Virus record (IMG/VR): IMGVR_UViG_2541047923_000008
Length of the DNA: 26,612 nucleotides
DNA from: a virus
Lineage: Duplodnaviria > Heunggongvirae > Uroviricota > Caudoviricetes
Reading direction: 5' to 3' (one strand)
The notes under the pieces are model-generated. The model ran no database searches and was not told where the DNA came from. It worked only from the letters and a program-made list of their open reading frames with translations. Position 1 is the stretch's first letter. Each line of letters starts with the position of its first letter. Of the stretch, positions 11,917 to 20,652 are shown piece by piece. A program made the position numbers and the translations under genes.

Positions 11917-12122
11917 TTCATTTTCACTTTCTTAAATCTAACGACAGATGGCTAACATTTAAGTATTGTGAAATATTATCAAATGTAATCATCATTGATT
12001 TACAAAAGATACATTTTGCCCCGAAAGGATTTCTGTCAGAAACATCAAAAGATGATGTTCTATACTGAGAACCATGGCAACACGGGCATCTAAAGTGAAT
12101 ATGGTTTGTAATATTTTCTACC

Positions 12123-12335
12123 TCAAAGTGCCACTACATGAACAGCTGCAGGGCCTTTAGGTCCGTTCTCAATACCAAATTCGACTTCCTGATTCTCAGT
12201 TAACGTTTTGAAATCGTTGCTCTGAATAGCTGAGAAATGCACAAACACATCTTTGCTACCATCTTTCGGCGTGATGAAACCAAAACCTTTTTCAGGGTTA
12301 AACCATTTCACTAAACCAGTCATTTTGTTAGACAT
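12123..12335 (-). CDS. Cold-shock protein, CspA family (CspI/CspB-like)
   Basis: [38 protein letters not shown]... contains the RNP1 motif KGFGFI and RNP2-like VFVHF of the cold-shock domain; about 360 nt of non-coding sequence upstream, consistent with the long csp 5' UTR. Confidence 0.85.
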
Positions 12336-12698
12336 CATTATTACCTTTTGAAGAAGTTAGCCCTTGGGCAGAATGGTCCGAAAAAAAATATCAGAGAGAA
12401 AAACCAACAAGAAAATCTCAAGAGGTACAAATAATAAAATTATAACAATGACTGCTTCAGATAATTTTGTAACAAACCAGAACACCATTAACGCATGATT
12501 AACCAACCATAGCAAGGATTACTTTTGTAAAGAAAAACACACGAATGAAACAATAGCTTTATTTATTAATAAAACGTGTCATTCTGTCTAATGACCTTTT
12601 ATCTTACCCTTAAGATTTCAAGGATTTTGACTCATGGAAGAGTCCTTTTTATTTAAATTTCACATTCAGCGCTAAAAATAATCCGATTTAATATTAAT

Positions 12699-13726
<1,028 letters not shown>

Positions 13727-13839
13727 GGATATTTATCAGGATTTATCGGCTTCAAATCCCCGGATATGTTAAATCTTACCTCACCAGTGATGGGCACTGG
13801 CGGGAGGAGGATGTCAATCTGATAAACACAGAGGTGACT

Positions 13840-14100
13840 ATGGATTACACAAATCTACCAAAACAAACTTTTGCTGATTTAATCGCACTCAGGCAAGCAG
13901 TCGTAGCTCTAATCAACTTGTTGCCGGAGAAGGAAAAGGAATTAGTTAAAGCGCTTCTTAACAGAACTGCCGCCGATTTTTCATCATATCCACTGACAGA
14001 TGACCTTGCGGACCTTCCTGAATTAATTGCAGCGTCCGCCATTAAGCTTACTGAAGAGATTTACCCTCCTCAAAAATCTTCACAAAATTCCTGCGAGTAA
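13840..14100 (+). CDS. Orphan 86-aa protein of unknown function, inside the lysis cassette on the opposite strand
   Basis: ORF 13834..14100; ATG at 13840 preceded by AGAGG (5-nt spacer); followed directly by a strong intrinsic terminator; no recognisable motifs, acidic and helical-looking. Confidence 0.5.
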   Translation: MDYTNLPKQTFADLIALRQAVVALINLLPEKEKELVKALLNRTAADFSSYPLTDDLADLPELIAASAIKLTEEIYPPQKSSQNSCE

Positions 14101-14118
14101 CTTCAATGCAATAATCGT

Positions 14119-14154
14119 AAAACGCCGCAAACTGCTCATCGCGGCGTTTTTTTT
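14119..14154 (+). terminator. Rho-independent terminator (CGCCGC stem, 12-nt loop, T8 tract)
   Basis: AAAACGCCGC-loop-GCGGCGTTTTTTTT immediately after the stop of the 13840..14100 gene. Confidence 0.6.
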
Positions 14155-14348
14155 CATCTTCAGAAGGGATCAGCACCGACAATTTTTTATTCAGATCAGC
14201 GACGCTGCCCTCCAGTTTTTCAATGGGCGATTCAATATCATCTTTTTCTGACCGCAATGCCGTCGGTGGCGTCTTCAGAGAACCAGTAGATGATATGACC
14301 TTTATATACTCACTATAGCATTGGTGGGATATTCCAGAGGAGGTCATC

Positions 14349-15482
14349 ATGCATTCGGAAAATATTGCGGCTTACGTCGGGCTGGATGTGCATAAAGAAA
14401 CGTTGGCGGTTGCTATTGCTGCACCTGAACGGCTTGGCGAAGTTCGTTATTATGGTACGATTAACAACGAAGCCCAGGCTGTACGTCGATTATTTCAGAA
14501 ATTGCAGGGACTTTACGGAAACATTCTTTCCTGCTATGAGGCTGGCCCCTGTGGTTTTGGGCTATATCATCAACTCACAGCGATGAATATAAAATGCCAG
14601 GTTATTGCCCCTTCCCGCATACCAAAATCACCGACAGACAGAATCAAAAATGATCATCGGGACGCAATTTCTCTCGCCAGGTTACTGCGGGCTGGAGAAC
14701 TTACCCCTGTCTGGATCCCTGACCTGACTCATGAAGCTATGCGGGATCTAATCAGAGCCCGTGCAGCAGCTAAACGAGACAGCAGAGTTGCCCGACAGCG
14801 AATTCTGAGCATGCTATTGCGAACAGACAAACATTATGCAGGAAAGCACTGGACAGGAAAACATCGAACCTGGTTAGCTAATCAATCATTTAGTCAGCCA
14901 TCTCAACAGATTGCTTTTCAACACTATTGTCAAAGTCTGGAGCAGATTGAAGATCGCATACTTCAACTCGACCAGGAAATATCTCGCCTGTTACCTGAGT
15001 GGTCTCTGTGCAATCTGGTCTGCCAGTTGCAGGCTCTTAAAGGTGTTGGTCAGCTAATTGCAATAACTCTGGTTGCTGAACTGGGTGATTTTTCGCGATT
15101 TTCCAATCCCAAACAGCTCATGGCTTTTCTGGGACTGGTGCCAGGTGAATATTCCAGTGGAAACAGTATTCGTCCCAGAGGAATAACAAAAGTTGGAAAC
15201 AGCGAACTGAGACGTCTGCTTTACGAAGCCGCCTGGTCTTATCGTACACCTGCAAAAGTTGGGGCATGGCTTATATATTACCGACCGGACTCTGTAACAC
15301 AATATTCCAAAGATATTGCATGGAAAGCTCAACAACGATTGTGTTCTCGTTACCGAAGTCTGACAGCAAAAGGGAAAAAATCACAAGTAGCCATTACGGC
15401 GGTGGCTCGTGAGTTGACTGGATTTATGTGGGATATTGCACTTGCTGCCCAATCATCATTCAGTCAGCAGAAGCAAAATTAA
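14349..15482 (+). CDS. IS110-family (DEDD) transposase/recombinase
   Basis: 377-aa ORF; N-terminal VGLDVHKETLAVAI motif typical of the IS110-family DEDD domain and C-terminal helix-hairpin-helix-like region (LKGVGQLIAITLVAELGDFSRF); strong GAGGAGG Shine-Dalgarno. Confidence 0.85.
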   Translation: MHSENIAAYVGLDVHKETLAVAIAAPERLGEVRYYGTINNEAQAVRRLFQKLQGLYGNILSCYEAGPCGFGLYHQLTAMNIKCQVIAPSRIPKSPTDRIKNDHRDAISLARLLRAGELTPVWIPDLTHEAMRDLIRARAAAKRDSRVARQRILSMLLRTDKHYAGKHWTGKHRTWLANQSFSQPSQQIAFQHYCQSLEQIEDRILQLDQEISRLLPEWSLCNLVCQLQALKGVGQLIAITLVAELGDFSRFSNPKQLMAFLGLVPGEYSSGNSIRPRGITKVGNSELRRLLYEAAWSYRTPAKVGAWLIYYRPDSVTQYSKDIAWKAQQRLCSRYRSLTAKGKKSQVAITAVARELTGFMWDIALAAQSSFSQQKQN

Positions 15483-15484
15483 AC

Positions 15485-15655
15485 CCTGAAGCAGTCAGAC
15501 ACGGAATGAGTGATCCTCGTAAAAGAATTCAGGGAAGCCAGAATGCGCTAATACCTGCACGTAGAAAGAGGCCAGCTCACTGCGTAAATCGTCATGGGGC
15601 TAAAATCCCCGAATAAGAGTTTGTAAAATCCAAGATACAGTCTGACTGTTTCAGG
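15485..15655 (+). ncRNA. Candidate structured non-coding RNA closed by a 16-bp inverted repeat immediately 3' of the transposase; possible IS1111-type guide (bridge/seek) RNA
   Basis: CCTGAAGCAGTCAGAC at 15485-15500 pairs with GTCTGACTGTTTCAGG at 15640-15655 (15 Watson-Crick pairs plus one G-U) enclosing about 139 nt. Confidence 0.35.
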
Positions 15656-15710
15656 TTCTTTAATCCGCGATATAACGAAGCTCCCGGAGCTGCGTAAGGT
15701 CTTTTTGGGC

Positions 15711-16046
15711 TTAATATTTGACAAAGGTCATAAGAATTCTTCCTGGTAGCTTTCCTTTGTAGGTTATCCACACATTCTGCGCCTCTAAAATTACGGGGCG
15801 CTTTTCCGGCGACTGCTCATCCCCTTCACATAACCCGGCAGCAACATCCAGGAAGACCTGTCTGATGCTCCTTCTGGCTGCTGCCTCATAAAACTCCAGC
15901 GCGGCACCTTCAACACGGTCCAGCGAGATGTCCAGGTCAAAAATTTCGCCGTCAAAGCGTTTTTTGTCCCGTAACGCTAAAGTTACCGTAACTTTATTCT
16001 CAAAATTGCGGATCCCTTTCACAATCAGTTCATAGTTTTGAGTCAT
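15711..16046 (-). CDS. YdfR-like small protein between holin and endolysin; the C-terminus may be altered by the adjacent insertion
   Basis: 111-aa ORF starting 4 nt after the holin stop (MTQNYELIVKGIRNFENKVTVTLALRDKKRFDGEIFDLD...); resembles, from memory, the E. coli Qin-prophage YdfR encoded between essQ and rrrQ. Confidence 0.5.
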   Translation of the reverse strand: MTQNYELIVKGIRNFENKVTVTLALRDKKRFDGEIFDLDISLDRVEGAALEFYEAAARRSIRQVFLDVAAGLCEGDEQSPEKRPVILEAQNVWITYKGKLPGRILMTFVKY

Positions 16047-16050
16047 TGAA

Positions 16051-16266
16051 TTACTCTCCCCGTGCAGCCTTACGCTTGTCTTCTCTGATTTTGAAGTACA
16101 GATTTGTCAGATAAGTCAGGAAGCCCAGAACCAGACTCCCCAGTACACCAATCGCAGCCCACTGTGACGGACTGACCTGATCAAGCCACTGTAAAAACCA
16201 GTAGCCAGCACTGCCTGCGGAGGTGCCGTAGGCAATGCCCGTTGAAATTTTGTCCATGGATTTCAT
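16051..16266 (-). CDS. Class II pinholin, phage 21 S-type, with dual-start motif MKSMDK
   Basis: 71-aa [74 protein letters not shown] matches my memory of S21; two transmembrane segments; GGAGGTG Shine-Dalgarno. Confidence 0.9.
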
Positions 16267-16324
16267 AGCCTCACCTCCGCAAATAACGGATGGCGTAGTT
16301 TTACACTGAGAAATGAAAGGGATT

Positions 16325-16557: not shown

Positions 16558-16632
<75 letters not shown>

Positions 16633-16635
16633 ATA

Positions 16636-16711
<76 letters not shown>

Positions 16712-16713
16712 AC

Positions 16714-16790
16714 TGGACCGCCACCGGGGACTCGAACCTCGCACACTCAACTTAAAGGGTTGACGCTCTTTCCTGATGAGCTAGTGGCGG
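16714..16790 (-). tRNA. tRNA-like gene, possibly tRNA-Lys (UUU) or a degenerate tRNA pseudogene
   Basis: Reverse complement CCGCCACTAGCTCATCAGGAAAGAGCGTCAACCCTTTAAGTTGAGTGTGCGAGGTTCGAGTCCCCGGTGGCGGTCCA; good acceptor, D and anticodon stems, but C at position 33 and one T-stem mismatch. Confidence 0.4.
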
Positions 16791-16791
16791 C

Positions 16792-16867
16792 TGGTGGCCC
16801 TTGCTGGATTTGAACCAGCGACCTGGCGATTATGAGTCGCTCGCTCTCACCACTGAGCTAAAGGGCC
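16792..16867 (-). tRNA. tRNA with anticodon CAU (Ile2/lysidine-type or Met), ileZ-like as in lambdoid Stx phages
   Basis: Reverse complement GGCCCTTTAGCTCAGTGGTGAGAGCGAGCGACTCATAATCGCCAGGTCGCTGGTTCAAATCCAGCAAGGGCCACCA; resembles E. coli ileX-type tRNA as recalled; anticodon loop CUCAUAA. Confidence 0.7.
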
Positions 16868-20281: not shown

Positions 20282-20437
20282 TTACTCCTCAGGTTCGTAA
20301 GCTGTGAAGACAGCGACCTCCGTCTGGCCGGTTCGGATTCGTACCTCGCAGAGGTCTTTCCTCGTTACCAGTGCCGTCACAATGACGGTTAAACAGATGA
20401 CGATCAGGGCGATTAACATCGCCTTTTGCTGCTTCAT
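20282..20437 (-). CDS. hok: Hok-family membrane toxin (type I toxin-antitoxin)
   Basis: 51-aa product MKQQKAMLIALIVICLTVIVTALVTRKDLCEVRIRTGQTEVAVFTAYEPEE matches my memory of HokD/RelF; the ORF track shows a 19-codon in-frame upstream extension. Confidence 0.85.
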   Translation of the reverse strand: MKQQKAMLIALIVICLTVIVTALVTRKDLCEVRIRTGQTEVAVFTAYEPEE

Positions 20438-20652
20438 AGCCTGCTTCTCCTTGCCTTTCGGCACGTAAGAGGCTAACCTAGATTTGCCGTTCATAGATTG
20501 AGCCTCAGATTAATGTTAAGCGTCTTGCAGGACGCGTAATGTTAACTGGGGCTTTTCTCTATCTGCCTTTGGTGTTCATGCCTGAGGCAGATAGCCTCAA
20601 GCACCCGCAGCAATTCTACTTAACTCACGTCACCTCGCCAATATAAAATCAA

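Follow-up and report, generated by a model that had tools for sequence, protein, structure and literature searches.

RNA-guided recombinases of the IS110 and IS1111 elements were described in 2024 (PMC11187229; PMC11208160). For four IS1111 elements, Siddiquee et al. (2024, PMC11187229) showed that an RNA from the 3' non-coding region is recovered together with the purified transposase and that transposition depends on it; in this seekRNA the match to the top strand lies 5' of the match to the bottom strand. They give IS1111-family transposases a length of 330–350 aa and the motif GL-P----S(t)G. Durrant et al. (2024, PMC11208160) characterise the IS1111 group by subterminal inverted repeats of 7–17 bp, the repeats near the ends acting as DNA signals, and place the donor-binding nucleotides of many IS1111 bridge RNAs in a multi-loop. 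Supplementary Table 5 of that paper lists ISEc45 with 'Detected Bridge RNA End: RE' and the group IS1111, so the RNA of this element has already been predicted in print. Other full text naming ISEc45 consists of resistance-genomics surveys, its bridge RNA being mentioned in supplementary tables, and no explicit structure, guide map or target motif for the RNA was found in the literature searched. Here we examine a stretch directly behind the recombinase gene of an ISEc45 copy, and conclude that it is very probably the gene for the bridge RNA (long seekRNA) of ISEc45, a member of the IS1111 group of the IS110 family, and that a conspicuous inverted repeat in it forms the closing helix P1. The first-pass annotation had proposed a guide RNA 3' of an IS1111-type recombinase at this place, and the proposal is supported by a covarying structure, by guides that co-vary with their DNA partners and by the published table entry.

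The window, by which we mean the whole 26,612-nucleotide viral record IMGVR_UViG_2541047923_000008, contains a complete ISEc45 copy of 1447 bp at 14289..15735 (+). Its ends were placed by comparison with the Nissle copy and with the empty ydfR site of an uninterrupted prophage (locus L002), which reads ...GAGAACCAGTA^ATTCTTCC... (here and below a caret marks the insertion point); a shared A leaves the boundary ambiguous by 1 nt. By the same comparison, the target in the disrupted ydfR-family gene consists of a left half, GAACCAGTA (14280..14288, +), and a right half, ATTCTTCC (15736..15743, +). In megablast searches the block is identified as ISEc45 at 99.8–100% identity, under the RefSeq annotation 'IS110-like element ISEc45 family transposase', and the window copy is identical at 1447 of 1447 positions to those of E. 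coli Nissle 1917 (L001) and NGF1 (L079). Depending on the query, roughly 580–640 of 5,426 complete E. coli genomes contain ISEc45, Nissle 1917 and CFT073 among them. The RNA is unannotated in all sampled RefSeq E. coli records, where the features under the match are 'none'. The insertion site of the window may be absent from the 5,426 genomes, since no matched E. coli record listed covers both the flanks and the element.

The interrupted gene belongs to the ydfR family (DUF1327) of a lambdoid prophage and lies between the holin gene (16051-16266, -) and the endolysin gene (13193-13726, -), with the Rz gene at 12699-13196 (-). The recombinase gene of ISEc45 is oriented against the prophage late operon, and the 1.4-kb insertion could be polar on the lysis genes, crippling the prophage. 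Several other features of the surroundings were recorded. An array of four tRNA genes (Gly-UCC, Thr-UGU, Lys-UUU, Met-CAU) occupies 16558-16867 on the minus strand, between an antiterminator Q-like gene and the holin gene. Gathering-level Rfam matches comprise a sok antitoxin RNA (20432-20606, -, 111.7 bits) and a cspA thermoregulator leader (12077-12493, -, 107.5 bits). A G+C-rich hairpin, CGCCGC…GCGGCG (14126-14155), with a run of A on one side and of T on the other, resembles a bidirectional intrinsic terminator; it lies between the open reading frame 13834-14100 and the 3' end of the disrupted ydfR, and is the source of weak Rfam matches to GcvB and ncr1175.

The recombinase (transposase) gene of ISEc45 (14349..15482, +) encodes 377 aa with Pfam domains PF01548 and PF02371, and scores 278.9 bits against the NCBIfam model NF033542, 'IS110 family RNA-guided transposase', for which the cut-off is 140. 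Its C-terminal domain aligns with the IS621 transposase structure 8wt6 (E = 3.7e-9). Residues 260-271 carry GLVPGEYSSG, which corresponds to the IS1111 motif GL-P----S(t)G. The length of 377 aa had been taken to fit the IS1111 subgroup; this was wrong, as Siddiquee et al. quote 330–350 aa for the family, a range that ISEc45 exceeds while having the motif. We place ISEc45 in the IS1111 group because of its 10-bp subterminal repeats, its long right and short left non-coding ends, the GL-P----SG motif and the order of its guides. The repeats, whose length falls within the range of 7–17 bp for the group, are TATGACCTTT at 14294..14303 (+), 5 nt from the left end, and AAAGGTCATA at 15723..15732 (+), 3 nt from the right end, and they match perfectly over 10 nt. 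The left end is conserved among homologues as GATG..ATGACC. AAGGTC, the core of the right repeat (15724-15729), recurs 28 nt upstream at 15696-15701, between the RNA gene and the right end; this second occurrence was not seen in the Sodalis or Klebsiella homologues. The right non-coding end measures 253 nt against 60 nt for the left, and both arms of the inverted repeat considered below lie within it. The predicted RNA is encoded, as are bridge RNAs, inside the boundaries of an element that carries a DEDD/Ser recombinase gene of the IS110 family.

The arms of this inverted repeat, CCTGAAGCAGTCAGAC at 15485-15500 and GTCTGACTGTTTCAGG at 15640-15655, are 16 nt long, 94% complementary and separated by 139 nt according to the repeat finder; within 13800-16300 they are the only pair that it returned at a length of 16 nt or above and a complementarity exceeding 90%. 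The 5' arm begins 3 nt past the recombinase stop codon (15480-15482). Fifteen of the 16 pairs are Watson-Crick; the sole mismatch, G15491 opposite T15649, is a G-U pair on the plus strand and a C-A mismatch on the minus strand. The duplex formed by the flanking segments has an energy of -29.9 kcal/mol, against -10.6 +/- 2.7 in 300 shuffles of the 3' segment, none of which was as low. The first-pass description of a 16-nt repeat with a single G-U-compatible mismatch, enclosing about 139 nt and placed immediately after the transposase stop, is borne out by the repeat finder, by the duplex shuffles and by the 3-nt distance from the end of the open reading frame 14349-15482. Folding of the 175-nt stretch 15483-15657 gives -56.6 kcal/mol (z = -4.6), which none of 200 shuffles equalled, and the two strands of the window sequence fold about equally well when taken alone.

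Relatives of the recombinase were collected by scanning one genome per species, which gave 76 loci at 32–97% identity. The 3' non-coding regions of the closer homologues align, and their stems change in compensating fashion. A structure was written by hand on five close sequences and converted into a covariance model (R1), which was used for a model-based alignment. R1 has a single match in the window, at 15483..15657 (+, 182.9 bits), predicted to encode a bridge/seek RNA of ~172 nt. Across 77 sources it returned 37 matches, all on the plus strand and a few tens to ~150 nt past the recombinase stop, except in L072, where the match is displaced by an insertion in the P4 loop. The RNA is found at the matching position in more than 30 loci, in homologues down to about 45% protein identity. 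The L072 insertion (L072:1665-2085, from a gammaproteobacterial genome) places ~150 nt in the apical hairpin P4 of the homologous RNA; part of the insert (GAAG.TCTGAA.AA.TTGTCATTTCGAGCG) occurs again a short way past the RNA and may be a small repeat element. A permissive scan of the RNA region against Rfam 15 and a scan of the whole window at the gathering threshold returned no relevant family for this RNA.

In the R1-fitted alignment of 33 distinct sequences, whose pair counts are biased toward the structure by the fitting, 95.1% of the 972 cells form pairs, a level that none of 500 shuffles attains (70.8%), sliding the 3' partner by 1–3 columns leaves only 43–52% of cells paired, compensatory changes are found at 25 of 32 pairs against a shuffle mean of 20.0, and all 16 pairs of P1 have changed on both sides. 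An alignment-free test agrees: cognate 5' and 3' segments form far stronger duplexes than do non-cognate or shuffled partners, as in L060 (-59.9 vs -28.4) and L073 (-69.0 vs -28.4). The check suggested for the original proposal, conserved structure with covariation across homologues, therefore came out in its favour (95.1% vs 70.8% of cells; 25 of 32 pairs). Because the arms of different homologues do not line up by sequence, RNAalifold gave wrong pairs for the outer helix when applied to an ordinary MAFFT alignment; the R1 alignment and the alignment-free duplex test took its place. A 62-aa open reading frame overlapping the RNA stretch (15428-15616) was rejected as a gene because it is broken by 1-nt deletions in ISEc45 variants and by indels in homologues that are not multiples of three.

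Inside P1 (15485..15500 with 15640..15655, +), which is supported by the repeat finder, the duplex test and covariation, lies a first branch made up of P2, P3 and P4. P2 (15507-15511 / 15575-15579, +) shows compensatory changes at five of five pairs and P3 (15515-15518 / 15568-15571, +) at three of four; variants of the P2/P3 stem among homologues include CCUC/GAGG, CCCC/GGGG and UCUC/GAGA. P4, the apical hairpin of the target-binding arm (15530..15557, +, with stem 15530-15533 / 15554-15557), is present as a hairpin in every homologue, and its stem differs among them (CUGUG/CACAG, CGGUG/CACCG, UGGAG/CUCCG). The 2-bp helix P1b (15502-15503 / 15583-15584, +) is a predicted pairing that is invariant in the alignment and thus neither supported nor contradicted by covariation. 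Between the donor guides stands hairpin P5, UGGGG-loop-CCCCG (15595..15611, +), which is 99.4% paired and contains one covarying pair (GC, CG or UA).

A near-perfect 16-bp inverted repeat around about 140 bp would also be expected of a small MITE-like element with 16-bp terminal inverted repeats inserted just past the recombinase gene, and solo copies of an RNA module are reported for ISPpu9/ssr9, another element of the IS110 family. Such an origin, put forward as the alternative in the first-pass annotation, is nevertheless rejected as vanishingly unlikely. Of the 5,426 E. coli genomes, 642 contain the 173-nt stretch, at 918 places altogether, and 644 contain the adjacent 3' part of the recombinase gene, at 992 places; the stretch has accordingly not been multiplied independently, and the independent copies elsewhere that were to count against a guide RNA were not found in these genomes. 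The element would further have to account for its constant position in homologues down to about 45% protein identity, for arms that are wholly different in sequence yet complementary, for the absence of a target-site duplication flanking the repeats, and for an excess of G-U over A-C of 81 to 15.

Several of these observations also bear on whether the palindrome functions as DNA, bound by the recombinase or a host protein, and not as RNA. IS1111 elements do use inverted repeats near their ends as DNA signals (PMC11208160), and the roughly equal folding of both strands of the single sequence is what a DNA palindrome would give. The true subterminal repeats of ISEc45, however, lie elsewhere, at 14294-14303 and 15723-15732, and arms conserved only in their complementarity are ill-suited to a sequence-specific protein site. 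G-U cells outnumber A-C cells 81 to 15 in an alignment whose fitting itself favours G-U; this excess is strand-specific and therefore indicates the plus strand as the RNA. We consider a purely DNA-level role extremely improbable.

The bridge RNA reading is also supported by the unpaired segments. The internal loop of the first branch contains two candidate target guides. The 5' guide, AAAAGAAUU (15521..15529, +; RTG-like), is complementary to the top strand A^ATTCTT of the right target half, and the 3' guide, CACGUAGA (15558..15565, +; LTG-like), is identical to the top strand of the left target half and pairs with its bottom strand. CACGUAG (15558-15564) has the sequence that precedes the insertion point at the usual ISEc45 site, GAACACGTA^A, and at the IS66 sites of L001 and L080 the left guide is matched exactly by the flank CACGTA^GA; the left flank in the window, CCAGTA, mismatches it at two of seven positions. 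The two guides, directed at opposite strands, pair with the two target halves and overlap at the insertion point, as they do in a bridge RNA.

These segments change together with the flanking DNA. The left guide and left flank read CAACCA and CAACCA in Klebsiella (L006), AGCCA and AGCCA in about eight loci, and GGUA and GGTA in L016; the Sodalis locus L004 combines guide GGUA with flank GATA, with a wobble. With exact matches counted within the expected interval of 100–120 nt, the cognate left-guide 6-mer is present at the left junction in 15 of 28 loci, as against six of 336 non-cognate comparisons. For the right guide and right flank the pairs are AAGAA with TTCTT across homologues, AAAAA with TTTTT in L015, and AAAUGC with GCATTT in the distant L041; there is little variation in this guide, the right flank being almost invariant (TT[C/T]TT).

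Donor guides flank the P5 hairpin. The 5' donor guide AUCGUC (15588..15593, +; RDG-like) pairs with the left end GATGAT with one wobble, and the 3' donor guide AUAAGAG (15613..15619, +; LDG-like) reads as the right end followed by the left end's first base, the sequence of the circle junction ATAAGA^G. The predicted circle junction of ISEc45 is ...GGTCATAAGA^GATGATATGACC... The 3' donor guide has six variants among the homologues (ATAAGA, ATAGGA, ATGAGA, ATAACA, ATATCA and ATCAGA), each of them found again at the right end of the element that carries it, and by the same 6-mer control the cognate donor 6-mer is found there in 19 of 28 loci, against seven of 196 non-cognate comparisons. In the 5' donor guide the CAUC:GATG pairing is conserved and the next position co-varies (U/A, C/G) only in the enterobacterial set; the 6-nt guide is mismatched at positions 5–6 in L014, L015 and L016. 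Pairing with the donor ends is therefore seen with a strongly co-varying AUAAGAG and a weaker, only partly co-varying AUCGUC, and the 5' donor guide is the weakest of the four. The proposed check for loop complementarity to the target and donor junctions thus has a positive answer, the complementarity being present and co-varying with flanks and ends across homologues.

The target guides overlap at a core of 1–2 nt, either A alone or A followed by A or G. Where the target has A at the first position of the right flank, the outcome is always A^G at the left junction and A^A at the right; this holds for the window, L001, L016, L017, L018, L073, L080 and L081. The fixed outcome is not explained by a 2-nt core with AG in the donor and AA in the target, and both guides tolerate it through G-T and U-G wobbles. 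Two degenerate ISEc45 copies, L053 (Shigella flexneri) and L054 (E. coli ECMA0423), jump from within the right-target guide (…CCTCGAAAAAG) to the IS66 right flank (TTTTCTTCCCGAGACAG…), so that the right end and the bulk of the RNA gene are lost.

The flanks of the IS66-borne copies, reverse-complemented and translated, all read LG(R/K)KN^(W/Y/F)(L/M/V)F, a conserved motif of the IS66-family TnpC, with the insertion point between the N codon and the aromatic codon (L001, L004, L006, L007, L013, L015, L016, L073, L080, L081, L083, L084). As a result, the four bases at which the left guide varies track the codons for the aromatic residue and the one next to it. Judged from these flanks, insertion at an IS66 codon motif is common to the whole ISEc45 clade, which ranges from Enterobacteriaceae to Alphaproteobacteria and Planctomycetota, so that one insertion sequence targets another family. 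In E. coli, ISEc45 variants whose RNA regions are ~96% identical (L082, L083, L084) have CAUAUA or C-UAUA as the left guide and sit in IS66 copies, one annotated as ISEc23, whose flank is CATAAA and not CACGTA. On the evidence of the paired changes, the shift of the guide from CACGUA to CAUAUA or C-UAUA is a natural retargeting within one species. A second insertion outside IS66, by an element identical to that of the window, is found in NGF1 (L079, NZ_CP016007.1) in the type I restriction specificity gene hsdS, where the AAAAGAAUU guide has a perfect 9-nt match. We read the ydfR and hsdS insertions as secondary, look-alike sites, because they lie outside IS66 and match the right half fully (7 and 9 nt) and the left half only in part.

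No sigma-70-like promoter was found inside the element, nor an intrinsic terminator, terminators being sought in 14200-15850. The lack of a separate promoter, together with a long stable helix directly after the stop codon, would suit a structured 3' untranslated region of the recombinase mRNA that serves as a terminator or stabiliser and has no guide role. A terminator is at odds with the sequence after P1, UUCUUUAAUCC, which has no U-tract, and with the lack of any terminator call in 14200-15850; a stabiliser, for its part, needs no unpaired segments that match the element ends and flanks and change with them across homologues. We therefore hold an untranslated region of this kind to be very unlikely. 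With no internal promoter found, expression of the bridge RNA would rest on read-through from the recombinase gene or on a promoter formed at the circle junction. A TTGACA -35-like box, read from the sequence at 15717..15722 (+) and conserved in homologues, would combine across the junction, by analogy with ISEc11, with a 17-nt spacer and a weak -10 element TATGAC (14294-14299).

Compared with the seekRNAs of ISEc11, ISPa11, ISKpn4 and ISPst6, as given in the available part of Siddiquee et al., the ISEc45 RNA is alike in its position 3' of the transposase gene, in the subterminal repeats of the element and in having the top-strand match first, and its relatives with different targets likewise display natural reprogramming. 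The P2-P4 arm (about 15504-15585, roughly 80 nt) is comparable to their 'peak' seekRNA of 82–96 nt, and the P1-closed form to the 'long' seekRNA of 154 nt (PMC11187229). ISEc45 differs from the IS1111 family of that account in its 377-aa transposase (330–350 aa there); in addition, the available text describes target matches only, whereas the ISEc45 RNA also has donor-matching segments that co-vary with the ends. Siddiquee et al. also describe ISEc21, an RNA-guided insertion sequence that, like ISEc45, has as its natural target a conserved coding motif within a transposase gene from a different family; ISEc21 is of the IS110 group, its RNA lies upstream, and it inserts at the DDE codons of IS3-family transposase genes, and the ISEc45 clade targets the TnpC of the IS66 family (the LG(R/K)KN^(W/Y/F)LF codons).

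The ISEc45 recombinase, with a DEDD domain and a Ser-containing Tnp domain, is homologous to that of IS621, and its RNA resembles the IS621 bridge RNA (PMC11208160; PMC11208158) in combining a target loop with a donor part, in having bottom-strand left and top-strand right guides, and in the overlap of these guides at a short core. The A that follows CACGUAG matches the left end, and the UU that follows AUAAGAG matches the right flank, by which these nucleotides may resemble the handshake guides of IS621. Unlike IS621, where the RNA lies in the left end, ISEc45 has it in the right end; the order of guides in each loop is reversed, the top-strand guide coming first; the donor guides stand in a P1-closed multi-loop, as in many IS1111 orthologues, and not in a simple internal loop; and the core is A(A/G) in place of CT.

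On the bridge RNA reading, the RNA closed by P1 would be multi-branched and would fall functionally into two parts. Its first branch, made of P2-P3-P4, would present an internal loop with the two target guides, overlapping at the 1–2-nt core A(A/G), and the segments flanking the P5 hairpin would act as donor guides. In complex with the DEDD/Ser recombinase, the RNA would position a target beside the circle junction and in this way direct insertion. The usual target of the clade is the LG(R/K)KN^(W/Y/F)LF codons of IS66-family transposase genes, and the copy in the window landed in a look-alike site in the prophage gene ydfR. Transcription, by read-through of the recombinase mRNA or from the circle-junction promoter, as well as RNA processing, recombinase binding and the chemistry of strand exchange, are presumed to follow ISEc11, ISPa11, ISKpn4 and IS621.

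A further proposal can be made tentatively and is rather doubtful. In many homologues the P1-closed multi-branch RNA may match the integrated junctions through the nucleotides that directly follow its bottom-strand guides (CCA^GAU on the left, AUAAGA^GUU on the right), so that one RNA could serve both insertion, with the circle and the target, and excision, with the two junctions; the geometry would be the mirror image of that of IS621, and the clade might be a specialised parasite of IS66 transposase genes with a drifting left guide. If this is true, the strand and guide geometry mirrors IS621, and the left-target guide drifts with the (W/Y/F)(L/M/V) codons of IS66 subfamilies, even among ISEc45 variants that are ~96% identical.

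The analysis changes no concept, and its value is that of a worked annotation of a known kind of RNA. The guide map, the IS66-TnpC motif and the natural guide variants provide ready cognate guide-target pairs for an IS1111-type bridge recombinase native to E. coli. The insertions in ydfR and hsdS show what natural off-target sites look like in this system, with a full match to the right half of the target and a partial match to the left.
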